64,000 bases of DNA from Candidatus Eiseniibacteriota bacterium. Its GTDB lineage: Bacteria > Eisenbacteria > RBG-16-71-46 > CAVPCR01. Of the stretch, positions 6,183-25,150 are shown in pieces. A program made the position numbers and the translations under genes. How positions within the stretch are numbered: the first letter of the stretch is position 1; each line of letters opens with the position of its first letter. The notes below the pieces were generated by a model that did no database searches, had not been told where the DNA came from, and saw only the letters and a list, made by a program, of their open reading frames with translations. The stretch is taken from positions 160,001-224,000 of the forward strand of contig CAWGMA010000001.1 in the NCBI GenBank assembly GCA_963823555.1, read 5' to 3'.

Positions 6183-7343
6183 CTAGGTCTCCGCCTGCTT
6201 CGCCTGGGCTCGCCGGCTGCGTCGTGGCCTGCGGGGAACGGACTGCGCGAGCTGGCCGCACGCCGCGAAGATATCCTTGCCCTGACTACGCCGCAAGGTG
6301 ACCGCCACCACTCGCGGCTCGAGAAGGTGGGCGAAGTGCTCCATGCTCTCGGTGCTCGCTCGCTCGAAGTCAGGAAGCCCGGTGGGATTGTAGGGGATCA
6401 GATTGATCTTGCTCGCAGTACGGTTGGCGAAGCGAGCGAGCCGCCGGGCGTCGTCGGCCGAGTCGTTGACTCCGGCGAGGAGCACGTACTCGATCGTGGA
6501 CCGTTCACCGCTGCGTTCGGCATGCTCGCGCATCGCCGTGGCGAGCGCTTCCATCGCGTAGCGACGGTTCACCGGCATGAGCTCGTTGCGCTGGGGATCG
6601 GTCGTTGCTCCCAGGGACACGGCCAGTCGGACCTTCGGCCGCTCGCGGGCCAGGCGTCTGATCCCGGGGACGACACCAACCGTCGACAAGGTGATGCGCC
6701 TTGCGCTCAAGGCCAGACCTTCCTTGTGCGTGAGAATGTCGATGGCCCGGATCACCGCATCGAGATTGGCCATGGGCTCGCCCATGCCCATGAACACGAT
6801 GTTGAACCGCTCGGGGAGGGGCGCGATCGCGTCCAGGCCATAGACCTGGTCCACGATCTCGGCGGGGCTCAGGTTGCGCACGAATCCCATCTGTGCGGTG
6901 CGACAGAACCGGCAGCCAAATCCACACCCGACCTGGGACGAGAGACAGAGCGTGAGTCGGCCTGGCGTTGCGATCCGAACCGTCTCGATGCGGGCCCCGT
7001 CCGCCGCGACCAGGACGAACTTGCGGGTCTCGGTCTCCTGCGATCGTTGCTCTTCGACCACGGTGAGCGCCGGGATCGAGAACTCGCTGGCGAGGCGCTC
7101 GCGGAGGAGCGCGGGTAGATTCGTCATCGAAGCGAAGTCGCGGGCGCGCCGGGCATGCAGCCAGCCGAAGAGCTGGCGGGCGCGGAAAGGGCGGTCGCCG
7201 GCGGGAAGCGGGGCGATGGCGCGCACGAGGTCATCAGGCAGCGCCCCGAGCAGGCTGGGTCGTGTCTGAGAACCAGCCGCGGCCAGCGGCTCGATCGATA
7301 CCGCAGGCGAGTCTGATGCCGGCAGTGGCGGGCGATGGATCAC
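6183..7343 (-). CDS. rlmN: 23S rRNA (adenine2503-C2)-methyltransferase RlmN (radical SAM)
   Basis: CLSSQVGCGFGCRFC, MGMGEP and AACGQL motifs; start uncertain (GTG 7343 chosen). Confidence 0.9.
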   Translation of the reverse strand: MIHRPPLPASDSPAVSIEPLAAAGSQTRPSLLGALPDDLVRAIAPLPAGDRPFRARQLFGWLHARRARDFASMTNLPALLRERLASEFSIPALTVVEEQRSQETETRKFVLVAADGARIETVRIATPGRLTLCLSSQVGCGFGCRFCRTAQMGFVRNLSPAEIVDQVYGLDAIAPLPERFNIVFMGMGEPMANLDAVIRAIDILTHKEGLALSARRITLSTVGVVPGIRRLARERPKVRLAVSLGATTDPQRNELMPVNRRYAMEALATAMREHAERSGERSTIEYVLLAGVNDSADDARRLARFANRTASKINLIPYNPTGLPDFERASTESMEHFAHLLEPRVVAVTLRRSQGKDIFAACGQLAQSVPRRPRRSRRAQAKQAET

Positions 7344-7534
7344 GTGAACGTCTGGTTCGAGGTCGGCGCCCGAATGGGGAGCACGGGCGCGATGATGGAT
7401 GATGGATGCGGAAAGGACCACCTCACTCGCAACGCCAAAGGATATCACACCTTGTCAAAGCTGGCCGGTTCCGCCGGCCGGCCTGATCGCCTTGGAAGGG
7501 ACCCGCCTCTTTGCCCAGGGCCAGGAAGGTCCTG

Positions 7535-7550
7535 TTACAGGCAGGTATAA
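7535..7550. promoter_or_regulatory. Quasi-palindromic candidate operator TTACA-N6-TATAA
   Basis: ttacaggcaggtataa is 13/16 identical to taacagtcagatataa at 11270-11285. Confidence 0.45.
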
Positions 7551-7568
7551 AAAAGCTTGCGAACCCCG

Positions 7569-7596
7569 TTGACCCCCTCCGTTCCTGGGCTATGCT
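7569..7596 (+). promoter_or_regulatory. Sigma70-type promoter for the peptide/activator genes
   Basis: TTGACC-16nt-TATGCT. Confidence 0.55.
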
Positions 7597-7732
7597 GGTG
7601 CTGAGGGAGAAGTTCGCTCACTGACGGCGAGTGACTCCTCCGCGAGGTCCCCACATCCTCTCGAGGTTGTTCCCGGTGGTGCCGTCGAGCGAAAGCCGCA
7701 GTTCGCTGCGGGCGAAGGAGTTGACTTACCCC

Positions 7733-8068
7733 ATGTGTCGCCGAACGAGGTACTTGCTAATCCCTGCGTGCCTCCTCCTTCTCACGGCCGTGGTGCCCCC
7801 TCAGCCGGCCTTGGGCAATGGTGATCCAGACGAGGTCATCGAAAAGACCGAACCGTTTCCGCCGCTTCCACCCTTCCAGATTCCACCCTCGTCACCACCC
7901 GCGCACGGGTTCCAGGGAGACCCGGACGAGCTACCGGACGGGGGCTACGACGATGAGGGGGGCTCCGGAGGGCCGACGCTCCCCGGAGACAGCGGTATGC
8001 GCGGAACCGGAGACTGGATCTTCATGATGCTCAACGTGATGAGGCTCGCATTCTCGGCCGCGTATTGA
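7733..8068 (+). CDS. Small secreted protein / putative signalling pro-peptide (111 aa)
   Basis: AAGGAG upstream; signal peptide MCRRTRYLLIPACLLLLTAVVPPQPALG; GDPDE occurs twice; hydrophobic C-terminal helix. Confidence 0.65.
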   Translation: MCRRTRYLLIPACLLLLTAVVPPQPALGNGDPDEVIEKTEPFPPLPPFQIPPSSPPAHGFQGDPDELPDGGYDDEGGSGGPTLPGDSGMRGTGDWIFMMLNVMRLAFSAAY

Positions 8069-8123
8069 TCTCGTCGCTGTTCCACGACCCCGTGGCTAGC
8101 TCCCAGAGGTGCATGGGCACCGA

Positions 8124-11100
8124 ATGTCGGAGATCAAGGTGAGGAAGGGGAAACCCGCCGCCCCAGAGGTCGCAGCCTGCGCCCCCGGCTCCCGGGCCGA
8201 GTTCGAGAAGCTTCTCCAGCTCGGCAATGGGCAGTTCGAGTGTGATAACCGCAAGGAGGCGCTTGCCTTCTATGCCCAGGCCTGGGAACTCCTGTTAGCG
8301 GCGGACCGGGCAGCAACTTCCGACCCCGGAGACCTCCCGGGGATGGCCGGAGAGGCCGTCTTCCTGTGCCGCCGGATGGGCGAGGTCCATCAGCTGCGCG
8401 GCGACTTCGAGGCTGCCCGCCATGTCCTCGCCGAGGCCGAGCGCCGGCTCGAGGAGCATCCTGACGACCATGAGCTGGGACAAGTTCTCGCCATCCGGGG
8501 CTCGATCGCGATCGACCTCGGCCGGTTCTCCCAGGCTCAACGCCTTCTGAAGCGGGCATATGAGCTCCTCAAGAGCTCGCCCGACCATCACGCCTTCGGC
8601 GCCCTCGAGCGCCGCCTCGGCAAGCTGTACCTGCGCATGGGACGGCCACAGGAGGCCCGGACCTACTTCGAGAGTGCGCTCGCCACCTTCCGTCGCATCG
8701 GCGACCAGCGCGGCATCGCCGGCACGCTCAATAACCTCGGCCTCATCCACAAGCTCGCCTGCGAGTGGATGGAGGCGGTCCGGGTCATGGAGAAGGGCCT
8801 CGTTCTGAACGAGATCCTCGCTGACGAGGCTCAGATCGGCGCCCTGTGCATCAACCTCGGTGTCGTGCACATGAAGATCGGCCAGTGGCAGCGGGCTGAG
8901 GAACGCCTCGACCGGGCCATCGCCTGCAATGCGCGCATCGGCAACCGCCGTGGCCTTGCCAACGCGTACATCGCCCGGGCCAATCTGGCGCTCCGCCTTC
9001 GTCAGTGGCGGGATGCCGAGCGCTGGCTCGAGCAGGCGCTCGAGATCGCGCACCCCCTCGGCCTCGTGCGGGCCGAGGGCTTGGCCCTCGAATCCCTGGG
9101 CGATCTTGCCGCCGATCGCGGCGACTTCGCACGTGCCGAGGAGCATCTGCGCGCCGGCCTCGAGCTTGCCCGCCCGCTGGGCGCGGACAACGAGCTCATC
9201 GGGGAGCTCGGGCGGCGTCTGGGGGAAGTGTGCGCTTCCACGGATCGTCCCGACGAAGCGCTGGCCCTCGTTGAGGAAGCCATCCATATCGCGCGCAAGG
9301 TCGGTGATCTCTACGAGGAGGCACTCTGTCATCGCCTCTTCGCGCGGATCCACGGTCTCCGGGGAGAGATCAAGCTGTTCCGCGAGCATGCGGCTCAGAT
9401 CATCGGTCGTCTCTCGCATATGGGGGAGAGGCGCGAGCAAGCGCGCACCTTCCTGGCCCTCGGCGATGTCTGGATGGCCCAGCGCTCCGCCCTTGCCGAG
9501 TCATGGCTCGAGGAAGCGCAGGTTTCCTATCAGCGGGCCGAGACCCTGGCGCTCGGCCTCGAGCTGCGCGGGGAGGCGGCGCTCGCCTCGCTCCGACTCG
9601 CCGAGCTCGAGCGCGAGCAGGGGCGGCTCGACCAGGCGCTTGTACGCATCGGGAGCGCGCTGCACCAGGCCGGGGAAGGAGAGCCGGCGATCCGTGAGGA
9701 GCTCGTTCGCCTCCGGGGCGAGGTCGAGGACGCCATGGCGGCCGGCTACGGGCCGAAGGCGGCCGAGCGCGAGGCCTTCCAGGAAGTCACGAAGCTCTAT
9801 TCGGGTCGCGCCGATGTCGATGCTGTGCTCGAGAACCTGATTCGTCTGATCGAGGAGCGGTCGGGGTCCGACCGGGCCTTCTGCGCCTGGGCTCCCAAGG
9901 AAGCGCCGCCAGCGGTCTGCGCGACCACCGGTTTCCGGCGGAGCGAGGCCACACGGATCCTGAACGGGCTCGGGCGCGGGCTCGTGGCCGAGCTCATCGC
10001 CGATGATCGTCCGCTCATTGCCACCGATCCCGAGGATGATCCCCGACTCCAATTCATCGGCCATCGCGATGGCAGCTCCGCTCTCTCCATAGCCGTCATG
10101 CCCTTCCAGATCCCGGATCAGGTACAGGGCATCGTCTATGTGGAGCGCTCACCGGGCAATCATGCCGGCCCCTATCGCGCCGCCGATATCGCTCTGCTCT
10201 CGATGCTCACGAACGTCGTAGCCATCGCCGCCGTCGAGGCAGAACGCGCGCGCCGGCTCACCGAGGGGGTAGCGGCCGCCGACCGTCCGCCGGCCCTGGC
10301 AAGCATCATCACCGGCAACTCGGAGATGCTGCGCATCCTGAACCTGCTCGAGCGTGTCGCATCGACGCCGGCGAGAGTCCTCTTGCTGGGCGAGACCGGA
10401 ACCGGCAAGGGGCTTCTCGCCAGCGCATTGCATCACTTGAGCCCACGGGCGCAGGAGCCGTTTCTGCAGATCAACTGCGCGGCGTTGCCGGAGCCGCTCC
10501 TCGAGAGCGAGCTCTTCGGGCACGTGCAGGGAGCGTTCACCGGCGCCATCCGGGAGAAGCTCGGGCTGTTCGCGGAAGCAGGGGCCGGTACCATCTTCCT
10601 CGATGAAATCGACAAGATGACGCCTTCCATGCAGGCGAAGCTCTTGCACGTTCTCGACCGCCAGGAAGTGCGGCTCGTCGGCGACACCAAGTGGCGCCAG
10701 ATCCACTGTCGAGTGGTGAGCGCTGCCAACGTCGACCTCCGCGAGCTCATTCGCAAGGGCGAATTCCTGGAGGATCTCTACTACCGGCTGAATGAGTTCT
10801 CGGTGCTGGTGCCCCCGCTTCGCGATCGCCCGGATGATGTTCTGCTCCTGGCGCGGCACTTCATCGAGAAATCAGCGGTTCGGATGGGGCGTCATCCGCG
10901 CGGCATGGATCCGGAGGTCGAGCGCCTGCTCGTGAGCTACGAATGGCCGGGTAACGTGCGCGAGCTCGAGAAGACCGTCGAGCGTATGGTCGTACTTGCG
11001 ATGGACGATGCCCCGCTCGGGCTCGACCTCCTGCCCGAGGGTCTTGTCAGCCCGTCCTCATCGCTCAAGGCGGGCACGACGTTGCGCGAGGAGATCCGTC

Positions 11101-11285
11101 GACTCGAAGCCCGGATGATCGGCCAGTCGCTCCGCGAGAACGGATGGAACAAGCTGCGCACGGCGCGCGCGCTCAAGCTGTCCTATCCCGCTCTGCTCAA
11201 GAAGATCCGCGAGTATGATCTCGATCGTCGCCGAAACGGCGGCAGCGCTCCCTCCCGACGCAAGAGCGTTAACAGTCAGATATAA
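8124..11285 (+). CDS. Sigma54-dependent enhancer-binding protein with N-terminal TPR array, GAF, AAA+ and Fis-type HTH
   Basis: Many TPR-like repeats (e.g. AGTLNNLGLIH, INLGVVHMKIGQW); GAF-like segment; GETGTGK, ESELFGHVQGAFTGA, FLDEID, WPGNVREL and a C-terminal HTH; start 8109 or 8124. Confidence 0.9.
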   Translation: MSEIKVRKGKPAAPEVAACAPGSRAEFEKLLQLGNGQFECDNRKEALAFYAQAWELLLAADRAATSDPGDLPGMAGEAVFLCRRMGEVHQLRGDFEAARHVLAEAERRLEEHPDDHELGQVLAIRGSIAIDLGRFSQAQRLLKRAYELLKSSPDHHAFGALERRLGKLYLRMGRPQEARTYFESALATFRRIGDQRGIAGTLNNLGLIHKLACEWMEAVRVMEKGLVLNEILADEAQIGALCINLGVVHMKIGQWQRAEERLDRAIACNARIGNRRGLANAYIARANLALRLRQWRDAERWLEQALEIAHPLGLVRAEGLALESLGDLAADRGDFARAEEHLRAGLELARPLGADNELIGELGRRLGEVCASTDRPDEALALVEEAIHIARKVGDLYEEALCHRLFARIHGLRGEIKLFREHAAQIIGRLSHMGERREQARTFLALGDVWMAQRSALAESWLEEAQVSYQRAETLALGLELRGEAALASLRLAELEREQGRLDQALVRIGSALHQAGEGEPAIREELVRLRGEVEDAMAAGYGPKAAEREAFQEVTKLYSGRADVDAVLENLIRLIEERSGSDRAFCAWAPKEAPPAVCATTGFRRSEATRILNGLGRGLVAELIADDRPLIATDPEDDPRLQFIGHRDGSSALSIAVMPFQIPDQVQGIVYVERSPGNHAGPYRAADIALLSMLTNVVAIAAVEAERARRLTEGVAAADRPPALASIITGNSEMLRILNLLERVASTPARVLLLGETGTGKGLLASALHHLSPRAQEPFLQINCAALPEPLLESELFGHVQGAFTGAIREKLGLFAEAGAGTIFLDEIDKMTPSMQAKLLHVLDRQEVRLVGDTKWRQIHCRVVSAANVDLRELIRKGEFLEDLYYRLNEFSVLVPPLRDRPDDVLLLARHFIEKSAVRMGRHPRGMDPEVERLLVSYEWPGNVRELEKTVERMVVLAMDDAPLGLDLLPEGLVSPSSSLKAGTTLREEIRRLEARMIGQSLRENGWNKLRTARALKLSYPALLKKIREYDLDRRRNGGSAPSRRKSVNSQI

Positions 11286-11445
11286 CTCGGATTGCCATTC
11301 CCAGTTTCTTTGAACACAACTGGTTGTGGCTGTCGTTTCGTTTCGATGGAAATTAAGTTGATAGTTTGCGGCCGGTACTTGAAGACAAGGTCCACCCGCA
11401 GCAGCCGCCCCACATGCTCAACTCGTTACAAAGGATAGAGTTGAG
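11270..11445. promoter_or_regulatory. AT-rich enhancer region with candidate UAS and IHF-like sites
   Basis: Motif at 11270-11285; inverted repeat ctcaactc-N13-gagttgag at 11417-11445; TCAA-N4-TTA IHF-like site at about 11418-11428. Confidence 0.45.
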
Positions 11446-11471
11446 GCTCAGGACGCAATCCCCAATCGGAT

Positions 11472-11487
11472 TGGCATGCTTCTGGCT
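11472..11487 (+). promoter_or_regulatory. Sigma54 (-24/-12) promoter
   Basis: TGGCATGCTTCTGGCT: GG(11473-74)-N10-GC(11485-86). Confidence 0.7.
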
Positions 11488-11496
11488 GAGGACAAT

Positions 11497-11783
11497 GCGT
11501 GGAGTGGGGACCTCCTAGGACTCCCTGGGGTATTCGGAGTCTCGAGGCCTCCGGACAGATCTCTTCCTCAACTGCAGCCTGGGCTGTCCGGAGTATCTCG
11601 AACCCGAATACCTCGGGGGTCCGAATTCATCATCTTGGTGTGGATGAGCTGAACCGCCTGCTCATCCGATCACCTCTGAATTCGCCACTCCCCGCATGGC
11701 CAAGGCTCCGGCGGTTCAACAAGCGTCTTGGCATCGGGGGGTGTGACGCGGCCTCGGGTTCGTCGACCCGAGGCCGTTTTCTT
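11497..11783 (+). ncRNA. Putative novel structured non-coding RNA (~285 nt)
   Basis: Starts at the predicted sigma54 TSS. Stems: P1 11495-11507/11685-11697, long P2 11518-11622, P3 11623-11683, P4 11699-11732. A 9-bp loop-loop complementarity is present and the RNA ends in an intrinsic terminator. Confidence 0.7.
11748..11783 (+). terminator. Intrinsic terminator
   Basis: gcggcctcgggtt-cgtc-gacccgaggccgt followed by a T-rich tail. Confidence 0.8.
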
Positions 11784-11963
11784 CTGGATTCTCCAATCCT
11801 CCTGCTCTGCCCACCCCAGTGGTTTCGTGTGGCGAGCGCGCTACGTGGCGTGACCTCGCTGCCGCGCTGATTCCTCGCCTGCCTGTCTCTCCAGGTTCCA
11901 TGTCCTTCCCGTATCCATTGTCCCGATAATGAGTTGAGTCTGTCCATCGGCCCTTCGGGAGGC

Positions 11964-11979
11964 TGGCATTCGAAATGCG
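11964..11979 (+). promoter_or_regulatory. Second sigma54 promoter
   Basis: TGGCATTCGAAATGCG: GG-N10-GC, 125 nt upstream of the lipoprotein gene. Confidence 0.65.
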
Positions 11980-12103
11980 TTGGGGGATCGGTGCGGGTGG
12001 CCGCAGGGCCACCCGACCGCACCGGCAAGGTGCCGCGCGGGGAAGGGCAAGCATCGCCTGCGGGCGGCCCGTTCAGGCCCGTCCGCGAAGGGAGGTGACC
12101 CCG

Positions 12104-12937
12104 ATGGCGATCCGCCAGGAACCTGAGAAGATCGGCGACACCGCTCGCGGCCGCGCCCGGCTCGTGCTCGCGGCGCCTCTCGTCGCCGTCCTCCTCCTTC
12201 TGAGTTCGGGTTGTGGGCTCGACCTCGACGATGACCCGGTCGTCGGTCCCCGCGACGTGACGCCGCCGGCGATCCCGACCGGAGTCCGTTCCGTCACCGG
12301 TGACAGCCAGGTGCAGCTCGTGTGGAACCCCAATGTCGAAGAGGATCTCGCCTGCTACCGCATCTACTGGAGTCCGGCGCCGGCAGGTCCCTACGAGTTC
12401 ATGGCCGAGACCGACATCCCCCGCTTCGTCGATCGCGATGTCGACAACGGCGTGACTTACTTCTACGCGGTGACGGCCGTCGATGTCGCAGGGAATGAGA
12501 GCGAGCTTTCGCTGGAGCTGATTCATGACACCCCTCGCCCTGCGGGGACCGATCTCGTCCTCTGGCGCGCGTCCGGCCCGAGCTGGGAGCTCTCCGGCTA
12601 CGACTTCAGCAGTTACGTGCGGCGTCCGTGGAGCTCGGTCGACGCCGACATGTACTTCAACCTGGAGAGCGGGCGTCCGGCCATGGTGGCCTCGGATCCT
12701 GCTACCGATCTGCAGGATGCCGGCTATGCCCAGCTCGATGATCTCGACTGGGCACCCCCCGCGGGCTGGACGGGCGAAGACCGCGTGACCCTCATCGAAG
12801 GCCACTGCTACTACGTCTGGACCCGCGACGACCACTACGCCAAGTTCCGTGTCACCGATCTGAATCTCGAGCGGGTGGTCATCGACTGGGCTTACCAGAT
12901 CGACAAGTCGAACCCCGAGCTCGTGAGAGGTAGGTGA
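12104..12937 (+). CDS. Lipoprotein with a fibronectin type III domain
   Basis: GGAGGTGA RBS; lipobox LLLLSSGC; Fn3 signatures PAIPTG...VQLVW...YRIY...YFYAVTAVD..GNES. Confidence 0.8.
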   Translation: MAIRQEPEKIGDTARGRARLVLAAPLVAVLLLLSSGCGLDLDDDPVVGPRDVTPPAIPTGVRSVTGDSQVQLVWNPNVEEDLACYRIYWSPAPAGPYEFMAETDIPRFVDRDVDNGVTYFYAVTAVDVAGNESELSLELIHDTPRPAGTDLVLWRASGPSWELSGYDFSSYVRRPWSSVDADMYFNLESGRPAMVASDPATDLQDAGYAQLDDLDWAPPAGWTGEDRVTLIEGHCYYVWTRDDHYAKFRVTDLNLERVVIDWAYQIDKSNPELVRGR

Positions 12938-12942
12938 TTGCC

Positions 12943-14316
12943 ATGCGCGCGCGACTTTCTCAGCTCGCGGCCGCCACTCGTGTCCTCGCCATCACGACGA
13001 TGTTCGCAGCCGCGGCCGGTGCCGCTGCCGCCGGTCCCCTCGGACCGGAGGCGCTGACGGCGGTCCCCGCCGGGTCCATCCAGGGTCCTCCGCTCAGGGT
13101 CAAGCTGTGGGTCGATCGCGGTGCCGAGGCGGTCTACTACCCGGGTGATCCGGTGTGGGTGACCTTCACGGTCAATCACGATGCCCATGTCTGCATCTAC
13201 AACATCGATACGGGGGGCAGCGTGCAGGTCCTCTTCCCGCCGCCCGGGGATCCGGGATTCGTCCGTGCCCACGAGGTCGTGGAACTGCCACGCATCGACA
13301 GCGATTTCGAGTACGTCGTCTCCGGACCGCCAGGCATCGAGACCATCGAGGCGATTGCCAGCCGGGCCCGTCTTGCGCCCTGGGATGAGGGCTGGGGTTG
13401 GGAGTGGGAGACCGAAGATTGGGACGAGCGCGACTGGGAGAACGGCCGGCACAGCGAGGACCCTGAATGCGATGACTGCGATCCTGAGCTCGAGGAGTGG
13501 GAGGAGGACTGGGATGACGGGGAAGGCTGGGGCGAGGGGGTCGGCGGGCGCAGTACTCGGCTCGATGCCCGCCCCATCGCGCCGCCGCGCCCGACGGGCA
13601 TCACGGTGTCCGGTGATCCGTTCGTGGCCATTCGTCGCGTGAACCGGCGGTTGCTTCCAGCTCCCTGCCCGGCGCGCGATTACGATACGGCGGTCCTGAC
13701 CTTCTACGTCGGGCGCCGGGTGCACTACCCCCGCTACGCCTGCAATGACTGCCATGGGCCCGTCCATGGGTTCGATCCCTACGGGGACCGGTGCTCGGTG
13801 TTCTCAGTGCGGGTGAACGTCGGCTGGGTGTACACGCCACACCACGTCGTCGTGCGCGATGTGCACGTCATCGAGCCGCGCTACGTCTACGTGCGGCATC
13901 CCGTGGTCCCGCCTCGCTACAAGCACCTGAAGCGAGCCTGGCCATCGCACGATCGCTACAAGCTGAAGAAGGAGTTCGCCGGCACCCCGACCTGGAAGGC
14001 CGTGCCGAAGCCGCCCACGACCAAGGGAATGCCGGCTACCTGGCCGGAAAAGGGGGGCTCCGAGCGGACCGGTCTCCTGTGGAAGGGGAAGGTGCGGGTC
14101 GAGCATCCGATCGAGAACGGGACCATGATCCGCGAATCAGGTGGCAAGTCGCCCCCCGCGGCGACCAAGAAGGTCAGGGGATCCGGTTCGACCAAGTCAT
14201 CCGGTGGAGACAAGGCGGCCGCCAAGTCGCAGAAGTCCGGTGCCAAGAAGAGAGCGGTCGACACGTCGGCGCAGCAGCAGAAGAAGACGGGCGGATATTC
14301 GGACAAGAAGCGCTGA
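12943..14316 (+). CDS. Secreted DUF4384-like protein with a CxxCH motif and a Lys-rich tail
   Basis: Signal peptide; KLWVDRG..AVYYPGDPV...IYNIDTGGSVQVLFP...GPPGIETIEAIAS; CNDCH at 13741-13755; start 12934 or 12943. Confidence 0.7.
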   Translation: MRARLSQLAAATRVLAITTMFAAAAGAAAAGPLGPEALTAVPAGSIQGPPLRVKLWVDRGAEAVYYPGDPVWVTFTVNHDAHVCIYNIDTGGSVQVLFPPPGDPGFVRAHEVVELPRIDSDFEYVVSGPPGIETIEAIASRARLAPWDEGWGWEWETEDWDERDWENGRHSEDPECDDCDPELEEWEEDWDDGEGWGEGVGGRSTRLDARPIAPPRPTGITVSGDPFVAIRRVNRRLLPAPCPARDYDTAVLTFYVGRRVHYPRYACNDCHGPVHGFDPYGDRCSVFSVRVNVGWVYTPHHVVVRDVHVIEPRYVYVRHPVVPPRYKHLKRAWPSHDRYKLKKEFAGTPTWKAVPKPPTTKGMPATWPEKGGSERTGLLWKGKVRVEHPIENGTMIRESGGKSPPAATKKVRGSGSTKSSGGDKAAAKSQKSGAKKRAVDTSAQQQKKTGGYSDKKR

Positions 14317-16501: not shown

Positions 16502-16633
16502 TCAACCTTCGACTTTGCAATTGATTGCGTGCCTCAGCATGGAGCCTGCTGCGACCAGTCGATCCTGGCGGCTCACGGTGCATGCCGCAAGTTGCCACTC
16601 GCTATCCATTCCAAGCCGAGCCCTATCGAGCCC

Positions 16634-19600
16634 ATGATTCGATCCCATTCGTCGCCTCGCCGGCTGTCCGCCTTCCTGGCGGCCGCGTCATTGCTCGTTC
16701 TTCTCCTGGTCCTGGGCCGGCCTGCCGAGCACTCGGCCCCGCCCCGGCACCCGGATCGAGAGGATGGACTCTCCGCCGAGACCGGCTTCTGTGCCGTGCC
16801 GCCGGTACCCATGAAGGCCGGCTTCCGGGCCGCGAGTCGATATGCTCCGGCGCGCTCCGAGCGTCCGCTGCGCCTGGCGGGGGAGCCGGCGGCCCGGAGC
16901 GCGGTGCCCGACACGCTCGAGGTCCTGGCCATCCGCACCGATTTCGAAGACCAGCCCATGGATTCGACCCTGGTCTATTTCGAGCGCGCCTTCCTGTTCA
17001 TGGAGCAGTACTGGGAACAGGTGAGCGTCGGCCAGCTGGTCGTCCACACGACCGTGAGCGATTCGGTCTACCGCTTGCCGGAGACCATGGCTTACTACGG
17101 CTACGATCCCCTGTTCGAGGAACGGCAGACACTCTTCATCCGTGATGCCATTCTCGCCGCGGACGATGACATCGACATGTCTGCCTTCGATGCGCACATC
17201 TGCGTCCATGCCGGTGCCGGGCAGGAGTCGGACGTGCTGGGCAACAGCCCCGAGCAGCTGTGGTCCGTGTTCGCGCCCTTCGAAGTGCTGTCGGCCTATC
17301 TGCCCGACTCGACAGGCGTCAACGGCATCCTCACCAATGATCGGACGCCGGAGGGGGATCCGTACTACGTCAAGTTCGCGCTGGTGCTGCCCGAGGTCGA
17401 GTCCCAGGACGAAACCCCATCGGGGCAGCCCTTCGTGTTCGGCATGACCGGGGTCTATGCCCACGAGTTCGGACACGTGGTGGGCCTGCCCGATCTCTAT
17501 GACACGACCCCGGCCGATTTTCCGGATTCGCAAGGTCTTGGGGCCTTCGACATCATGGCGGCCGGCACCTGGAACGCCAACGGTTTCGTGCCGGCACGGC
17601 CATCCGCGTGGTGTCTCTACGATCTCGGTTACCTCGATGCCGAAGTGGTGACGCGCTCGCAGCGGGTCGAGCTGGGGGCGGTGGCGGGCGACGCCGGCGC
17701 GCCGGCCGGTTTGCCTAGACTGGCGGCCATTCCCCTCGGCGGCGACGAGTATTTCCTGGTCGAGAACCGAGTGCAGGATCCGAACGAGAACGGGCTCTTC
17801 GACTGGAACGACGTCAACGGGGACTCGCTGTTCGATTACTACATCGATGACTACGAGGGTGCGGAGTTCGATTTCTTCCTGCCCGGGGACGGCGCGGGCT
17901 CGGGACTCCTCATCTTCCATGTCGATCCCTCGGTGATCGCGGCCAACTTCGTCGCCAACACGGTAGTGGGAGACCCCAAGCACAAGGGCGTCGATCTGGA
18001 AGAGGCCGACGGCATCGAGGACCTGGACGGCTACCCGCGCTCGATCGAGAGCTTCGGCAGCCCCAATGATGCCTTCCGCGCGGGCAACCGCGTTCGCTTC
18101 GCGCCCGATACCGTGCCTTCCACGGTATCGAGCTTCGGCGTACCGACCTTCGTCACCATCGACTCCGTGAGCGCTGCCGGTCCCGTGATGTCCTTCACGG
18201 TGGCCTTCGATCGGCGCAAGGGTGGAAGCTGGCCGGCCGTGATCACGGGGCCGTTGGGCGGGAACCATCCGGTGGCCGTCGATCTCGACCCCGAGATCGA
18301 AGGCCTCGAAACCGTGGTCGTCGACACCACCGGGGGTGTCTGGATCATCGCTGCGGACGGCACGATGCCTCACGGGGCTCCGTTTGCCCGGATCGGTCCC
18401 GACGCCGATACCACGCCCGCCATCGGTGACGTGGACGGCGACGGGGCGGCTGATCTCGTCGTGGTCGCCGCGGACGGCACCATCTACGCCTGGCATGGGG
18501 ACGGGACCGAAGTGGTGGACGGGGACATGGATCCGGCGACCACCGGGGTCTTTGCCCGCGTCGGCCGCTCGCTCAAGGACGCGGTCCCCGTGCTGGCCCG
18601 GCTCGGAGGGCCGGTCGATGCGGTGATCGCCGGTACGCCGGCCGATGCGGACGGGATGGGAGAAGTGGTGTGGGCCGAGCTTGTGGGCGACGACCCGGCG
18701 CATCCGGTGCGCCTGGGGCGGGCCGAGGTGCCTGGAGACGCCACCGCGCCGGCTCTCGTCTTCGCGACCACCGAACCCACGATTCTCGTGCCGGCGGTCG
18801 CCGCCGGCCGGACCCGGTTCTTCGCCGTCCGGCCCGATCCGCTCGGCGGCCCGGCGTCATCGACCGAGCTTCCGCGCGAGCGCGCCGAGCTCCAGTACGC
18901 GGTGCGCTCCGTGGTCGCCGGCGATCTGGACGGCAATGGCCGGCTCGATGTCGCGGCCTCCGATGACCACGGGCAAATCGAGCTCTACTCGACGGACGTC
19001 CCGCTCGCCGGGGGCGGCGAGCTCACCACGCTGTCCGCGCTTCCAGGCTGGCCGCTCCAGCTCGGCCTCGGGGTGGCGCACGATCTCGCGCTTGCCGATA
19101 TGGATCATGATGGCCGTGTCGAGGTGCTGGTCTCCGCCTTCGACGGTCGTCTCTATGCCGTCAATTTCAACGGTACGCCGCAGCTTTCGTTCCCGCACCC
19201 GACCGGAAGCCCGGATCGATCGATCCCCCGTCTGGTGCCCTCGCCGCTGGCGGTGGATCTCGAAGGGGACGAGCGCCCCGAGATCCTCTTCATGGCGGGC
19301 GACGGCCGCGCCTTCGCCGTCGGTGCCGACGGGCGCGTGCTCGATGGCTGGCCGCTGCCGGGACCGGCGGGCAAGGGGGCGCTCGCCATCCTCGCCGATC
19401 TCGAGGGTGACGGGCGCCTCGACTGGGTGGTGCCGAGCGAGATCGGGGCGTCGACCAGCCTCGTGGCCTATGATCTGGGTCCGGGCACCCTGGCCGGAGC
19501 CTGGACCGGATACCGGGGTGGCCCCACGAACAGCGGGATCCTGACTGTCCCGGCCCCGCCCTCGATGCCGCAGGAGTTCTTGCGTGAGTTCTATGTCTAT

Positions 19601-19858
19601 CCCAACCCTGTCGCCGGAGGTCGGGCCACGATCCACTTCTCGCTCGGAGATCCGGCCACCGTGGACGTGGAGATCCTGGATGCGACCGGCCGCGTCGTCG
19701 CGCGGCCGGCGGCCGGCGAGGCCTTGCCCGGCCGTACCGATCATGAGGTAAGATGGGACGTCCGCGATGCGGCCAGCGGCGTCTACCTCGCGCGCCTGAG
19801 CGTGAAGGGCGATGGCGCCGAGGTGGTGCAATTGAAGCCGTTTGCCGTCACCCGCTAG
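16634..19858 (+). CDS. M6 (immune inhibitor A-like) metalloprotease with FG-GAP/VCBS repeats and a T9SS/FlgD-like C-terminal domain
   Basis: HAGAG, HEFGHVVGLPDLY, EYFLVENR, GLLIFHVD; DxDGDG repeats; YPNP...SGVYLARL. Confidence 0.85.
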   Translation: MIRSHSSPRRLSAFLAAASLLVLLLVLGRPAEHSAPPRHPDREDGLSAETGFCAVPPVPMKAGFRAASRYAPARSERPLRLAGEPAARSAVPDTLEVLAIRTDFEDQPMDSTLVYFERAFLFMEQYWEQVSVGQLVVHTTVSDSVYRLPETMAYYGYDPLFEERQTLFIRDAILAADDDIDMSAFDAHICVHAGAGQESDVLGNSPEQLWSVFAPFEVLSAYLPDSTGVNGILTNDRTPEGDPYYVKFALVLPEVESQDETPSGQPFVFGMTGVYAHEFGHVVGLPDLYDTTPADFPDSQGLGAFDIMAAGTWNANGFVPARPSAWCLYDLGYLDAEVVTRSQRVELGAVAGDAGAPAGLPRLAAIPLGGDEYFLVENRVQDPNENGLFDWNDVNGDSLFDYYIDDYEGAEFDFFLPGDGAGSGLLIFHVDPSVIAANFVANTVVGDPKHKGVDLEEADGIEDLDGYPRSIESFGSPNDAFRAGNRVRFAPDTVPSTVSSFGVPTFVTIDSVSAAGPVMSFTVAFDRRKGGSWPAVITGPLGGNHPVAVDLDPEIEGLETVVVDTTGGVWIIAADGTMPHGAPFARIGPDADTTPAIGDVDGDGAADLVVVAADGTIYAWHGDGTEVVDGDMDPATTGVFARVGRSLKDAVPVLARLGGPVDAVIAGTPADADGMGEVVWAELVGDDPAHPVRLGRAEVPGDATAPALVFATTEPTILVPAVAAGRTRFFAVRPDPLGGPASSTELPRERAELQYAVRSVVAGDLDGNGRLDVAASDDHGQIELYSTDVPLAGGGELTTLSALPGWPLQLGLGVAHDLALADMDHDGRVEVLVSAFDGRLYAVNFNGTPQLSFPHPTGSPDRSIPRLVPSPLAVDLEGDERPEILFMAGDGRAFAVGADGRVLDGWPLPGPAGKGALAILADLEGDGRLDWVVPSEIGASTSLVAYDLGPGTLAGAWTGYRGGPTNSGILTVPAPPSMPQEFLREFYVYPNPVAGGRATIHFSLGDPATVDVEILDATGRVVARPAAGEALPGRTDHEVRWDVRDAASGVYLARLSVKGDGAEVVQLKPFAVTR

Positions 19859-19869
19859 GAGACCTGAGG

Positions 19870-20811
19870 ATGCTGACCACCTGCCACGCTCTCTGCCGCT
19901 CATCGGCCACGATCATCCTCGCCGCCGCACTCGTCGCGGCCGGCCTGGTCCCGGCGGCAACGGCTGCCGAGCGGCCGGGGATCGTCTCGCTCGAGCTCCC
20001 GATCGGCCCGCGCGCCGCCGGAATGGGCAGCGCCTACGTCTCGGTGGTGGACGATCCGACGGCCATGCACTGGAATCCGGCGGGGCTCTCGCGCCTCGAC
20101 GTGGCCGAGAAGCACTTCGCCATCCTCTTCCAGCACAACGAGTGGATCTCCGACTTCCGCCAGGAGTACGTGGGGGGCGGCACGCGTTTCGGCAAGCATG
20201 CGGTCGGCGGGAGCTTCTCCGGCTTCTACATCAACGACATCGATGGCCGCGACGAGTTCGGGCAGCCGACCGTCACCTTCGGCGCCTACGATGTGGTGGT
20301 CACCGGGTCCTATGCCTACGCGCTGACCGATCGCGCTTCGCTCGGGGGTTCGCTCAAGTACATCGTCGCCAACATCGACAACCTCTCCCGCTTCGCCTTT
20401 GCCGGCGATATCGGAGCCCAGTACGAGATCTACCCCGACCTGCACGTGGGCGGCGCCGTGACCAATCTGGGAAGCGGGCTCACGTTCGTCAGCGAACAGG
20501 ACGATCTGCCGACCGCGGTCCAGGTCGGCGGCTCCTATGTCTTGCCCTGGCGACTCGGCAACGGGTCGATCCTCACCGCACTCGATGTACGCAAGGCGCG
20601 CGGTGACGACACGCATGTCCTCTTCGGCGGTGAGTACGACTATGCCGGCGTGGCTCAGGCGCAGATCGGGTACGGCACGGGTTATGATAACGCGGGTGTG
20701 AGCTTCGGTCTCGGCGCCAACGTCTCCGGCTGGCGGGTCGGCTACGCCATCGTGCCCTTCGATTCGGACCTCGGCTCCACGCATCGCATCGCCCTCGGCT
20801 TCCACCTCTAG
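19870..20811 (+). CDS. PorV/PorQ-like outer-membrane beta-barrel protein
   Basis: Signal peptide; GPRAAGMGSAYV..DDPTAMHWNPAGL; C-terminal DLGSTHRIALGF. Confidence 0.8.
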   Translation: MLTTCHALCRSSATIILAAALVAAGLVPAATAAERPGIVSLELPIGPRAAGMGSAYVSVVDDPTAMHWNPAGLSRLDVAEKHFAILFQHNEWISDFRQEYVGGGTRFGKHAVGGSFSGFYINDIDGRDEFGQPTVTFGAYDVVVTGSYAYALTDRASLGGSLKYIVANIDNLSRFAFAGDIGAQYEIYPDLHVGGAVTNLGSGLTFVSEQDDLPTAVQVGGSYVLPWRLGNGSILTALDVRKARGDDTHVLFGGEYDYAGVAQAQIGYGTGYDNAGVSFGLGANVSGWRVGYAIVPFDSDLGSTHRIALGFHL

Positions 20812-20821
20812 GAGCCCGAAG

Positions 20822-23800
20822 ATGGGCGGAGCCCCTGCGCGCCGCTCGCGGCCAGGCCGCGCCGGATGCGCGATAGGGCTTGTCGCTCTCCTCCTCGGCA
20901 GCGCCCTGGTCCCATCCGCGGCCCACGCCGGTCCAGGCGAGCTCCTGATCCGGCTCCGGCCGCCGGCTCGCCCCGAGGGTGCAGCCAAGGAGGGAGGCCG
21001 CCTCGTTCCCCTCCTCGAATCTTCACGTCTCATCGCCGAAATCAGCGCCGAGCTTCCGGATGCCGTCGCGGCCACGCTCGTCGGCGCGGAGCCTCTGCTC
21101 GCCGCCCGCCGGGTGCCAGAAGGGTTTTCGGCAGCGGCCGAGAACGCTCGTGAACCGCTGGCTCGCACCTTCGTCCTGCGCCTTGAGGCAGGGACGGATC
21201 CAGAACCAGTGGCCGCCGCGATCGCCGGTCTGGCGGCCATCGAGATCGCGATCCCCAACCGTGCGATCCCGGTGGATGATGCGCGCCAGGCAGCCGCGGA
21301 TTCCGACCCTCGCCGTAACGAGCAGTGGTACCTGGATCGCGTCGGGGTGGCGGAGGCATGGGCCGTGACCCGCGGCGATGCTTCGGTCCTGGTCGCGGTC
21401 ATCGATACCGGCATCGATCCGCATGGCGACCTTGCCGCCAACCTGTGGCGGAACGATGACGCGCCAGGCAATGCCAGTCCCCTCGACGATGGATTCGACC
21501 AGGATGGAAGCGGGATCGTCGAGGACTGGGAGAAGGATGACGACGACGACAACGGTTATGTCGATGACGAACGCGGCTATGATTTCGTCGATGCCCCGCG
21601 AATCGGCGGGCCCGGGGATGCGGTCGACCGGGATACCGATCCCAGCGACGATTCGGGCCATGGGACGGCCGTGGCCGGAGTCATCGGAGCGGTGGCGGAC
21701 AACGGCATCGGCATCGCCGGCCTCGCCCCCGGATGCACGCTGATGCCGGTGCGGGCCGGCTTCAACCCCGGCCTCGGCGCCTTTGCCGGGGTCCTCGAGG
21801 AGGACGACGCAGCGGCCGCCATCGTCTATGCCGCAGAGAACGGTGCCCGCGTCATCAACATGAGCTTCGGCGACACGCTCAGCTCGCCGATCCTCGCCGA
21901 CGCCATTGCCTACGCGCAGTCGCTGGGCGCCGTGCTCGTGGCCTCGGCCGGGAACTCCGGCACCATGGGTATGCACTATCCCTCCGGGCTCGCGGGAGTG
22001 CTCGCGGTCGGGGCCAGCGATTTCACCGAGCGGCGCGCGGCCTTCTCGAGCCATGGCGCCACCCTCGATCTCCTGGCGCCGGGAGAGGGAATCCTCACCA
22101 CCGCGCGAATCGGTGGCGGCGATGACTATGTGCGACTTTCCGGCACGTCATTTGCGGCGCCGCTCGCGGCCGCCGCCGCAGCCCTCTTGCTCTCTCATGC
22201 TCCCGAACTCACCGCCGAGGATGTCGTCGCCAGTCTCACCGGCAGCACGGCCGATCTGGGAGCCCCGGGCTTCGATCTCGACACCGGGCACGGGCGGCTC
22301 GATGCGGGGCGGGCGCTCACGCTATCGCGCTCGGCCTCGGTCGCCATTCACTCCCCGGCTGCCGGCAGCGGGATCGACCGCACCGTTCCGCTCGTCGTCA
22401 CCGCGGAGGGTCTCAGGCTCCGCGAGTTCGTGGTCGAGGTGGGGGAGGGGCGCGAGCCCGCGAGCTTCGAGGAGGTGGTCCGGGCGAGCGGCCGCCAGGT
22501 TGTGGCTGACACGGTCGCGATCTGGGATGCCACGGGGCTTCCGGCCGGCGAGTACCAGCTCAGGCTCCGTGCCCTCGATGCGGTCGAAGGCTGGCGTGAG
22601 ACGCGCGCGCTCGTGACCGTGGATCACACGGCGCCGTCCATCCTGCATGCGGGTGCGGTGCCGCTGTGGGTCGAGGATCGAGTCCAGCCTTTCATCTTCT
22701 TCACCACGGATGATCTGGCCCGCGGGGTCGTGGATCTCGTACGAGCGGGCGGGGCGGAGCGGCGGATCGACGAGGCCTTCTTCACGCAGGACCATGTCCT
22801 GCGCGTTCCCGAGGATGTGAGCCCGGGGGCGCTGACGGCCACCGTCGGGGCGGCGAACGCCGCCGGCCTCAGGAGCACCGGACCCGAGCTCGCGTTCTAT
22901 CTGGGAGCCGAGCGTGCGCGGACCCACGCTCTCACCGACACCGGGGCCCGACTCCCGCCGGGCGAGACGGCCCCGGCGATCGCCGATCTCGACGCCGATG
23001 GCGCCGGCGATCTCGTCATGATGCTGCCACCCGCCGACCCGGGCTCGATCTTCGGGCCGCTCGCGATCTTCGAGCAGGAAGAGGGTGCTGCCTGGGTCGA
23101 GCGCCTGGTGCTGCCCTACGATCTCCTGCCGCGCGCAGTCGGCGACGCGGATGGTGACGGCCGCATGGAGATCCTGGCCAGTGCGGCGGGCACCTCCTGG
23201 CTCCTCGAGAGCTCGCACCCCGGCGGCTATCCCGATCGGGTGGTGTGGGCGGATACGACCGCGAGCGCCGGGTTCGCCATCGGGTTCGCCGCGCTCGGCG
23301 ATCCGGCGGGGCCGGCGCTCCTCGCCATTCGCGGCGATTCCCTGCTCGTCCACCGACCGACGGGGGACTCCGGTTCCTGGCGGCGTACCGCAGTCGGCAA
23401 TTTCAGCGGTCAGCCATGGAGTCTTGCGCCGACGTTCTTCGCCGGAGACGTGGACGGGGATGGGGTGGTCGAGCTCGTCATCGGCGACGCCGGCGGCAAT
23501 GTGCTCGCCTATCGAGCAGGGGCCGACACGCCGAGCGGTCTCATTCCGGCCTACTCATTCGCCTTGCCCGCGCGGGCCAACCCGCGTCTGGCGGGGGGCG
23601 ATGTGACCGGTGACGGGCGCCCGGAGATCGCGGTCGATCAGGGGCTCGATCTCGAGATCTCCTCGGAGGCGCTGCTCGAGCGGCGGCGGCACCTGCTCCT
23701 GGTGCTGGCTGCCGAGCCGATCTCCGGCTTCACCGTCGTCGAATCGATCGGGATCGCCGGCGCCGAAGCCGGCGGCAATGCGCTGCGCATGGCCTCGATC

Positions 23801-25150
23801 GATGAGGACCCCGAGGCGGAGATCCTCCTCGTCGCCGCTCCCGACCTGTACGTCTTCGACGCGGGAGAGGAGTGGTATCCCGTCTACTACCAGGGCGGTG
23901 TACGCAGCACGAGCCTCGCGCTGGGGGACGGAAACAACGATGGCCGCGTCGAGGTCGTGGTGCGGTCGGGAGAAGAGACCATCGTTCTCTCGGCCCGGGA
24001 TGCGTCGGTCCCGGGGCCCGTGCCGCCCTCCGGCCTGCGCGCCCGAATCGCCGCCGACGGCGCCGTCGAGCTGGCCTGGAATGCCAGCGCCGAGCGCTTC
24101 CGTGTCTACCGTCGTGCCGGGCCCACAGTCGATTGCGCTGAAACGCCGTTTATTGCGGAGGTGCCAGGACCCGCTTTCCGCGACACCGCGGTCACTGCCG
24201 TGCCCGAGGTGACCTACCGCGTGAGCGCTCTCGCCGCCGACGCCGAGGGCCCATGTTCTCCCCCGCTCACCGTGGTGCGGAGCGCGGCACCGCGTCTGCT
24301 CGAGGTCGTTCCCGAGCAGGCGCGCCTCCTCAGGCTGGTCTTCTCCGAGCCGATGGATGGGACGGCCGACCGGCTCGAGAGCTATTCCCTTGCCGATGGC
24401 GGTGGCGAGTCGGTCCCGCTGTCGTCGGTGCTCGCGGCGATGGGGGGCCGGGCGCGTCTCCTCGTCACCGCGCGCGACCTGGAGCCGGAGGAAGCCTACG
24501 CGGTCCGCCTGGGGGCGTTGCGTTCGGCATCCGGCGTGCCGCTGGCCGGGAACACGGAGATCGAGTTCACGGTGCCCCGCGAGGTCCGGCGTCTGACTCC
24601 GCTGCATGTGATCTCGGCCACCGGCGTGGCCGGGACCGGGGTCATCCGTCTGGCGCTCTCGGCGCCGCCAGATCCGCTCCTGGGCACCGATCCGGCAAGC
24701 TACCGCGTGGGCGGCGATCTCCGCGTGACCGCCGCCGCCGTCGACGGCAGCGCGGTGCGCCTGGAGCTGGATCCGGCCACGGTGCTCCACCCGGGGATCT
24801 TCGCCGTCGGCCTCGACCCGGCGCTCAGGGGGGTGGGTGGTGAGGTCGTGGTGCCCGGCCAGGGAGACCAGGTCGAGCTCGTGATCGGCGGCGAGATCGT
24901 GGCCTATCCGAACCCCTATTCGAGCGCACGCGCGGCCGCTGGTGGGGTGACCTTCGTCGGCCTCGGTGCCGGCGATCGGGTCATCCTGCTCGATGTCCTG
25001 GGTCGGGAAATATTGCGAGTGGACGCAGCCAACGACGGAACGGCGTTTCTCTCCGTGCGCGGGAACTCGGCCCTGGCCAGCGGCGTCTACGTCTATCGCG
25101 TGGAGGGATCCGGCGGCACACGCACCGGGAAGCTGGCCATCGCCCACTGA
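20822..25150 (+). CDS. S8 subtilase with FG-GAP repeats, Fn3/Ig-like domains and a T9SS-like C-terminal domain
   Basis: Catalytic VIDTG / GHGTAVAG / SGTSFAAP; YPNP...LASGVYVY. Confidence 0.85.
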   Translation: MGGAPARRSRPGRAGCAIGLVALLLGSALVPSAAHAGPGELLIRLRPPARPEGAAKEGGRLVPLLESSRLIAEISAELPDAVAATLVGAEPLLAARRVPEGFSAAAENAREPLARTFVLRLEAGTDPEPVAAAIAGLAAIEIAIPNRAIPVDDARQAAADSDPRRNEQWYLDRVGVAEAWAVTRGDASVLVAVIDTGIDPHGDLAANLWRNDDAPGNASPLDDGFDQDGSGIVEDWEKDDDDDNGYVDDERGYDFVDAPRIGGPGDAVDRDTDPSDDSGHGTAVAGVIGAVADNGIGIAGLAPGCTLMPVRAGFNPGLGAFAGVLEEDDAAAAIVYAAENGARVINMSFGDTLSSPILADAIAYAQSLGAVLVASAGNSGTMGMHYPSGLAGVLAVGASDFTERRAAFSSHGATLDLLAPGEGILTTARIGGGDDYVRLSGTSFAAPLAAAAAALLLSHAPELTAEDVVASLTGSTADLGAPGFDLDTGHGRLDAGRALTLSRSASVAIHSPAAGSGIDRTVPLVVTAEGLRLREFVVEVGEGREPASFEEVVRASGRQVVADTVAIWDATGLPAGEYQLRLRALDAVEGWRETRALVTVDHTAPSILHAGAVPLWVEDRVQPFIFFTTDDLARGVVDLVRAGGAERRIDEAFFTQDHVLRVPEDVSPGALTATVGAANAAGLRSTGPELAFYLGAERARTHALTDTGARLPPGETAPAIADLDADGAGDLVMMLPPADPGSIFGPLAIFEQEEGAAWVERLVLPYDLLPRAVGDADGDGRMEILASAAGTSWLLESSHPGGYPDRVVWADTTASAGFAIGFAALGDPAGPALLAIRGDSLLVHRPTGDSGSWRRTAVGNFSGQPWSLAPTFFAGDVDGDGVVELVIGDAGGNVLAYRAGADTPSGLIPAYSFALPARANPRLAGGDVTGDGRPEIAVDQGLDLEISSEALLERRRHLLLVLAAEPISGFTVVESIGIAGAEAGGNALRMASIDEDPEAEILLVAAPDLYVFDAGEEWYPVYYQGGVRSTSLALGDGNNDGRVEVVVRSGEETIVLSARDASVPGPVPPSGLRARIAADGAVELAWNASAERFRVYRRAGPTVDCAETPFIAEVPGPAFRDTAVTAVPEVTYRVSALAADAEGPCSPPLTVVRSAAPRLLEVVPEQARLLRLVFSEPMDGTADRLESYSLADGGGESVPLSSVLAAMGGRARLLVTARDLEPEEAYAVRLGALRSASGVPLAGNTEIEFTVPREVRRLTPLHVISATGVAGTGVIRLALSAPPDPLLGTDPASYRVGGDLRVTAAAVDGSAVRLELDPATVLHPGIFAVGLDPALRGVGGEVVVPGQGDQVELVIGGEIVAYPNPYSSARAAAGGVTFVGLGAGDRVILLDVLGREILRVDAANDGTAFLSVRGNSALASGVYVYRVEGSGGTRTGKLAIAH

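Follow-up and report, generated by a model that had tools for sequence, protein, structure and literature searches.

A phylum-wide cassette of putatively exported small protein, TPR-bearing sigma54 activator and structured RNA in Eisenbacteria

The DNA considered here is a stretch of 64,000 nucleotides from a Candidatus Eiseniibacteriota bacterium (the window, to which coordinates refer unless a contig is named), and its positions 7535-14316 carry a regulatory cassette in which the genes of a small protein predicted to be exported and of a sigma54 activator with a tetratricopeptide repeat (TPR) array precede a structured RNA. This cassette is real, it keeps the order small protein, activator, RNA, and it is found throughout the phylum Eisenbacteria. 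It is made of parts of known kinds and, as a whole, has apparently not been described. The original prediction, made from the window, had seen in it a quorum-sensing-like circuit with two outputs, the RNA and a pair of envelope genes. Every feature that it named was found in its place when the window was re-examined, and the conserved peptide and RNA neighbours which it expected beside homologues of the activator do exist: small open reading frame (ORF), activator, enhancer, sigma54 promoter and RNA co-occur throughout the phylum, and activators present as second copies own a small ORF as well.

A fixed gene order across the phylum

On the plus strand, a 111-aa ORF (7733-8068) is followed, 55 nt after its stop codon, by the ATG of a 1053-aa activator with TPR, GAF, AAA+ and Fis-type helix-turn-helix (HTH) domains (8124-11285). 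Next come P1, a sigma54 promoter of the -24/-12 type with one mismatch (11472-11486), and the RNA. Promoter matches alone do not rise above chance in the window, and the case therefore rests on comparison. The TPR profile matches 146 of 151 Eisenbacteria genomes, usually twice (the tally includes genome G053), so that the cassette, close to a core trait of this uncultured phylum, probably controls something central. A DNA pattern composed of the sigma54 promoter and the first hairpin of the RNA, scanned over 47 of the 64 parts of GTDB, gave 119 loci, 81 of them labelled Eisenbacteria, 22 without label and 16 attributed to other taxa. The sets of loci used here overlap in part, and related genomes are not independent. 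Eighty of the loci found with the motif had flanks, two of which were too short; the activator lies directly upstream in 75 of the other 78, with a median of 211 nt between its stop codon and P1. The three loci that lack it, labelled Arthrobacter, Roseibacillus and Enterobacterales, were probably matched by chance. Wherever the DNA was sufficient, a small signal-peptide ORF was present at these motif-found loci (60/60), with the motif G[DE]xD in 59. Among 30 loci found through the protein, 29 have a signal-peptide ORF of 90-126 aa just upstream of the activator, the thirtieth having 21 nt of upstream DNA; a sigma54 site followed by the canonical 5' hairpin is seen in 24 and a variant proper to the family in four, while two are truncated. 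Thirteen best-match loci that span more families have promoter and hairpin in 11 cases and the small ORF in 12, the thirteenth ORF being recovered in a separate locus set. In a further, mixed set of second copies and best matches, 27 of 28 loci have their own small protein, 25 with a related motif. Viral contigs gave no match to the RNA motif, and the ESM Atlas returned Eisenbacteria clusters only, at 0.89.

The sigma70-type promoter of the operon that encodes the small protein and the activator, TTGACC-16-TATGCT, is present at 7569-7596 (plus strand) as first proposed, but its pattern alone is near chance in the window (two found, 0.7 expected); similar promoters, of the form TTGAC..GATACT, recur 5' of the small ORF in many relatives. 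Sigma54 sites with two mismatches are also at chance level (80 found against 73.6 expected), and support for P1 and for a second sigma54 promoter further downstream, P2, therefore comes from conservation. The spacing between P1 and the RNA is fixed in the 119 loci, which were found with that very pattern. Upstream of P1, at about 190 and about 120 nt, 90 of 98 loci carry a dyad of consensus T[AG]T[CA]AA-N5-TT[GT]A[TC]A. In the window its proximal site (11345-11365), which scores 17.3 with the position weight matrix (PWM), is the predicted binding site of the activator, while a distal, weak one (11279-11299, score 8.3) stands 66 nt away at a position kept in relatives. This dyad was defined by eye from the same loci, after an unseeded expectation-maximization search had converged on AT-rich DNA, and is not fully independent of them. 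Its support consists in the specificity of its spacer (152 sites with spacer 5, 76 with spacer 3 and 11-49 with others, against 14-28 in shuffles) and in its two peaks of position. Of 29 matches in the whole genome, the one at 11345 is alone in being near a sigma54 site. An enhancer-like dyad also lies 5' of the sigma70 promoter (7544-7564, plus strand, PWM score 15.7). It might serve autoregulation but is weakly conserved: such a dyad precedes the small ORF in just 6 of 60 relatives (0.3 expected), and this reading was set aside.

The structured RNA

The RNA opens with GGAG(G/U)GGGGACCUCC, about 15 nt downstream of the -12 box, and the region 11495-11785 folds at z = -6.66, a value reached by none of 200 shuffles. 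The fold and the terminator of the 285-nt RNA that had been proposed are thus seen, but the part shared throughout the phylum is shorter, a core of about 120 nt (11501-11622) made of a near-invariant 5' hairpin, GGAGUGGGGACCUCC (11501-11515, plus strand), which is a candidate seed, and of a long rod (11518-11622, plus strand) whose structure is kept while its sequence varies. In 20 aligned loci 12 columns are invariant, and locus L214 displays one compensatory change in the stem. The sequence of the rod differs between families and covaries within them: 14 of 34 pairs are compensatory among the four closest relatives of the window, and in one other family 15 of 37 pairs covary over 15 sequences (0/500 shuffles). 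A crude, alignment-free test of the rod called a hairpin in 109 of 125 cases, with z < -2 in 77 and a U tail in 21. The 3' hairpins, which together with an intrinsic terminator (11748-11777) fill 11623-11785 on the plus strand, vary with lineage. This half of the molecule was compared with one genome of the same genus, where the terminator is kept, which makes the 285-nt form plausible for the genus.

At the gathering score no Rfam family matched the RNA of the window or of 20 loci (best E 0.099, far below the cut-off), and covariance models did not place it among the Pxr, Qrr, CrcZ or GlmY RNAs. The genome holds neither a second copy of the RNA nor a long complement to it. A 123-aa ORF that overlaps the RNA (11499-11870) was discarded, as it is not kept in the same-genus genome. 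Two loops of the 3' hairpins, 11650-11658 and 11710-11718, are exact 9-nt complements and might form a kissing loop; the complement is not in register in the same-genus genome. Several families carry extra hairpins. An additional conserved one, with a GGGGGAUG loop and a U tail, precedes P2 in L019, L026, L027, L029 and L059, and a different one is conserved downstream of the core in L012, L014, L017 and L021; either might represent a second RNA or a 3' domain. In L006, L007, L008 and L010 (families f8 and f14) another conserved ORF follows the RNA with no terminator in between, and there the RNA may be the leader of that ORF.

What the activator may sense

The activator displays what is found in sigma54 enhancer-binding proteins, with Pfam matches to TPR, GAF, Sigma54_activat (PF00158, E 1e-60) and HTH_8 (PF02954), intact GAFTGA, Walker A and Walker B motifs, an rpoN gene in the genome and a dyad 5' of the -24/-12 site. 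Its TPR region (residues 21-539) is modelled as 25 helices with a pLDDT of 91.4. Among bacterial structures it is best matched by a phage Rap with bound peptide (8rte, Z 27.9, rmsd 3.9, 339 residues aligned), while RapI and other Raps, NprR-NprX and AimR rank below both Rap and domain III of MalT. Foldseek puts the peptide-binding TONSOKU and LGN/Pins at the top, and Foldseek and sequence searches taken together list LGN/Pins, TONSOKU and kinesin light chain. Residues N203, N244, R171, K210, R316 and R365 are invariant or nearly so. Such conserved Asn, Arg and Lys residues, presumably in the groove, would suit an acidic peptide ligand, and the TPR domain likely binds the acidic motif of the small protein, although a fold held in common does not by itself establish function.

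This protein, encoded just before the activator, has a basic N-terminus, a hydrophobic core, a low-complexity linker and a C-terminal amphipathic helix with a Trp residue. We call it secreted on the basis of a hydrophobicity scan rather than of SignalP; in the window a signal peptide is predicted at residues 1 to about 28. The basic N-terminus and the hydrophobic core are present in 85 of 85 distinct small proteins, a set selected on that feature; their median length is 106 aa, and 18 of them have at most 100 aa. G[DE]xD is found in 84 of the 85, against 6.9% after shuffling. The repetition of the motif that had drawn attention at first exists in the window (GDPDE at residues 30-34 and 62-66), but only 12 of the 85 have it more than once. 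The motif comes directly after the predicted cleavage site in the window and in its four closest relatives. A Trp lies within the last 30 residues in 74 of the 85, and the C-terminal helix is not transmembrane, only seven proteins exceeding a mean hydropathy of 1.6 over 17 residues. Sorting of the PEP-CTERM or GlyGly-CTERM type was ruled out, there being no C-terminal transmembrane helix and no NCBIfam match; Pfam and NCBIfam gave no match to the protein at all. Substitutions in close pairs fall on third positions in 390 cases against 221 and 194 at the two others, and single changes in 13 pairs are synonymous in 242 cases and non-synonymous in 147, so that, judged from these sequences, the small ORF is under purifying selection; an indel-frame test (21/39) was uninformative as to coding.

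The link between small protein and activator appears in the paralogues. In the genome of the window, only 2 of 73 small signal-peptide ORFs combine the motif and the C-terminal helix, and each of these stands directly before a TPR activator. Activators present as second copies mostly lack promoter and RNA, yet keep their own small protein, so that the small protein goes with the activator rather than with the RNA. The second TPR-sigma54 activator of the genome (G000:C1:1722323-1719571, minus strand) is accompanied by a 100-aa signal-peptide ORF of its own, which bears a DDPD motif, and by a leader that complements the RNA seed. An enhancer-like dyad lies at 1722420, and no sigma54 promoter adjoins this activator. 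Elsewhere (locus L151, genome G003), a sigma54-like site and a hairpin unlike the main RNA come about 215 nt after a second-copy activator.

In the mechanism that we propose, the small protein would leave the cytoplasm and be processed into an acidic G[DE]xD peptide, which would come back in and bind the TPR groove of the neighbouring sigma54 activator. The peptide-bound TPR would gate the ATP-driven transcription, by sigma54 polymerase, of one structured small RNA (sRNA) from the adjacent enhancer and promoter, and the 5' seed of this RNA might pair with the leader of the operon as feedback. We give this circuit, taken in full, slightly less than an even chance; export, cleavage, re-import, binding, the sign of the regulation and the target of the RNA are steps that we infer from sequence. 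Besides rpoN, the genome has SBP_bac_5 genes, which encode binding proteins of the Opp/Dpp type. In a cell with two membranes Sec delivers its substrates to the periplasm, and the motif hardly varies; for both reasons the peptide would more likely report the state of the cell's own envelope or proteases than cell density. Quorum sensing is one of several readings, the phylum-wide motif being unlike strain-specific pheromones, and we give a cell-to-cell version about half the weight of the self-monitoring one. A full peptide-reimport system of double-membrane bacteria, where G[DE]xD passes between cells through two paralogous channels per genome and acts by way of a new Hfq-independent sRNA with feedback on the leader of the operon, seems to us improbable.

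Several findings weigh against the trimmed and re-imported peptide. The TPR fold does not discriminate between kinds of ligands, the GAF domain offers an input for a small molecule, and in most families the motif sits in the middle of the protein, where its release needs two cuts. Paralogous pairs also share the motif, which sets it apart from specific pheromones. Neither a dedicated protease nor a dedicated importer is linked to the cassette, a rhomboid gene being present at 1 of 50 loci and an M6 peptidase gene at 9 of 50. The last point is met by an export monitor, where the uncleaved precursor would bind the TPR array in the cytoplasm whenever Sec stalls, with neither protease, importer nor re-import. 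It would explain a motif invariant throughout the phylum and co-transcribed just before the activator, and it would fit a neighbourhood in which a secretion cluster resembling the type IX secretion system (T9SS) has a PorV-family gene at 37 of 50 loci. It leaves unexplained, however, the conserved C-terminal amphipathic helix and the exact position of the motif after the cleavage site in the closest relatives, and we hold it unlikely. The same may be said of small-molecule sensing through TPR or GAF, the small protein then being an accessory or an output that is co-transcribed with the activator but does not bind to it. Domain III of MalT (PDB 1hz4) ties with Rap in the fold search (Z 27.0, rmsd 3.7, 357 aligned), and Asn residues at TPR positions are common to many TPRs; but second-copy activators, most of them without RNA or promoter, still keep a small protein with a related motif, which points to a tie with the activator and not with the output.

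Possible targets of the RNA, known relatives and neighbouring genes

As for what the RNA acts upon, a candidate is the operon itself. Its leader contains GAGGTCCCCAC (7644-7654, plus strand), an 11-nt exact complement of the RNA 5' seed, which may close a feedback loop. Of 84 loci, 40 have GGTCCC between positions -120 and -60 relative to the start codon, while in three other windows of 60 nt it occurs in 5, 4 and 2. For pairing with the RNA, the leader of the window ranks 31st of 4914 crude leaders and that of the paralogue ninth, while the leader of the lipoprotein gene downstream ranks only 1296th. The base that faces the variable position of the seed is a purine in 3 of 3 U-variant loci and a pyrimidine in 31 of 37 G-variant ones. 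Against such feedback, 44 of 84 loci lack the complement, only 2 of the 27 second-copy or other leaders contain it, and the U-variant loci form a single clade. The site is also about 100 nt upstream of the start codon, off the ribosome site, and the seed is paired within its own hairpin. A target pattern at ribosome sites occurs in 64 of 81 genomes. A narrow test over 30 loci found just one pair of related downstream proteins, and so neither a recurring family of such targets nor a shared one such as an anti-sigma factor, a further point against the proposed mechanism.

The RNA might instead be a CsrA sponge, or another protein-binding RNA, rather than a regulator that acts by base pairing. 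Its 5' loop has a GGA, csrA is present in 28 of 41 genomes and in the window (32979-33128), and Hfq was not found in this genome, which is 92.5% complete. Family f12 (csrA 0/5) has lost the loop GGA, and no CsrA match was obtained in the searched genomes of families f3, f5, f8 and f12. Yet Csr/Rsm sponges carry many GGA loops, whereas this RNA has a single one, and the canonical hairpin, with its loop, is kept in f8 (csrA 0/4), f3 and f5. Because the RNA persists where csrA is not found, such a role is weakened, and the low frequencies of predicted functional CsrA in Eisenbacteria reported in PMC13443453 weigh in the same direction. We consider it doubtful. The distance between csrA and the activator is 14-23 kb in at least four genomes.

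The closest known systems share parts of this organization. In RRNPP systems, as defined in PMC10075063, a Sec-secreted propeptide of 10-100 aa is encoded next to a receptor of 250-500 aa with C-terminal TPRs and no foreign domains, and the intracellular peptide receptors are described for Firmicutes and their mobile elements. As in Rap-Phr, NprR-NprX, PlcR-PapR and AimR-AimP, the gene of the putative signal adjoins that of a cytoplasmic TPR regulator, there are paralogous cognate pairs, and the TPR fold is close to those of Rap, NprR and AimR. TPRs and adjacency are thus found here, but the receptor has 1053 aa, with its TPRs at the N-terminus and a GAF-AAA+-HTH output through sigma54, and the propeptide, mostly longer than 100 aa, has an internal acidic motif and a C-terminal amphipathic helix; the cassette is, furthermore, a core gene set of its phylum, its host has a T9SS-like outer-membrane system, and the RNA motif has no match in viral contigs. 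It is not an RRNPP member, because the length and architecture of the receptor and the length of the propeptide do not agree, and the detector of PMC10075063 would miss the receptor on account of its length and domain content. The layout of activator, enhancer and sRNA matches the pxrK-pxrR-pxr system of myxobacteria, where the gene of a sigma54 activator is immediately followed by about 260 bp with an enhancer and a sigma54 promoter, and then by a stem-loop sRNA whose first loop matters, in a host without Hfq. The activator there, PxrR, belongs to the NtrC-like response regulators and works with a kinase (PMC5684412), while here a TPR array and a small protein predicted to be exported form the input. 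The present RNA, moreover, belongs to no Rfam family. By analogy, the cassette likely works as an RRNPP system joined to Pxr would.

LuxO-Qrr circuits respond to small-molecule autoinducers by way of a phosphorelay and depend on Hfq for Qrr, whereas here the activator has no receiver domain and no Hfq was found in the genome. What they share with the proposed circuit is a small RNA placed under a sigma54 activator as part of signalling, as with LuxO/SypG and Qrr1 of Vibrio fischeri (PMC10162802). MalT domain III is the TPR-like superhelical sensor of a bacterial transcription activator. This protein is a sigma70 STAND ATPase that senses maltotriose and has no partner peptide gene. Searches of the open-access literature (PMC, bioRxiv) showed no description of the cassette, while subscription papers or the supplementary motif tables of large RNA surveys could contain the RNA. 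If our proposal is true, this is an undescribed peptide-sensing circuit in a double-membrane bacterium, and gating by a peptide would be a mode of input new to sigma54 AAA+ activators. Two predicted enhancer motifs and a new family of RNA come with the cassette, whose parts are small enough to be rebuilt in Escherichia coli, without culture of the host.

Two genes follow the RNA on the plus strand, behind P2 (11964-11978, one mismatch): a predicted lipoprotein without Pfam family, its lipobox LSSGC recognized by eye (12104-12937), and a DUF4384 protein with an N-terminal hydrophobic stretch (12943-14316). They are conserved neighbours, the lipoprotein gene following the RNA in 65 of 66 loci and the DUF4384 gene in 52. 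The two tandem sigma54 promoters of the original prediction are indeed present, but their enhancers differ, and they are probably not the pair of one activator. P2 has a dyad of its own, TGTGGC-N6-GCYACR (also written TGTGGC-N6-GCCACA), at 11826-11847 (window score 9.8) and in 51 of 57 loci, and the activator's dyad in none of the 57. The first matrix scores at P1 in 52 of 57 loci and at P2 in none, the second at P2 in 51 and at P1 in two; scores of a matrix at its own promoter are circular, those across promoters are not. The promoter of the lipoprotein and DUF4384 genes is thus likely served by another activator, and, P2 lacking the dyad of the cassette's activator, the structured RNA is likely, on this evidence from motifs, the only output of the latter. 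A cell-density circuit in which one activator drives both the RNA and these envelope genes could draw on the constancy of the lipoprotein gene with its sigma54 site and on the ability of enhancers to act over several hundred bases, but the different dyads, and a distance between P1 and P2 of about 310 to 800 nt that exceeds 3 kb in two loci, make it very improbable.

The lipoprotein and DUF4384 genes head the T9SS-like cluster (here 16529-25150), which comprises an M6-type metalloprotease with a Por secretion tail, a PorV-family protein and a large protein that by eye is subtilisin-like; the PorV-family and T9SS-tail genes suggest a host with two membranes. Reverse-strand ROK and rhomboid genes, each found at 1 of 50 loci, separate the DUF4384 gene from the cluster in the window. 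AT-rich elements at 11417-11445 and 11926-11943, 30-60 nt 5' of the two sigma54 promoters, resemble IHF sites. On the other side of the cassette lies rlmN (6183-7448, minus strand), divergent from it and upstream in 23 of 55 loci. Finally, the best match to the second dyad in the genome, at G000:C1:2112220, is followed by a sigma54 promoter close to the consensus and by a signal-peptide-like gene, likely a second member of the P2 regulon.

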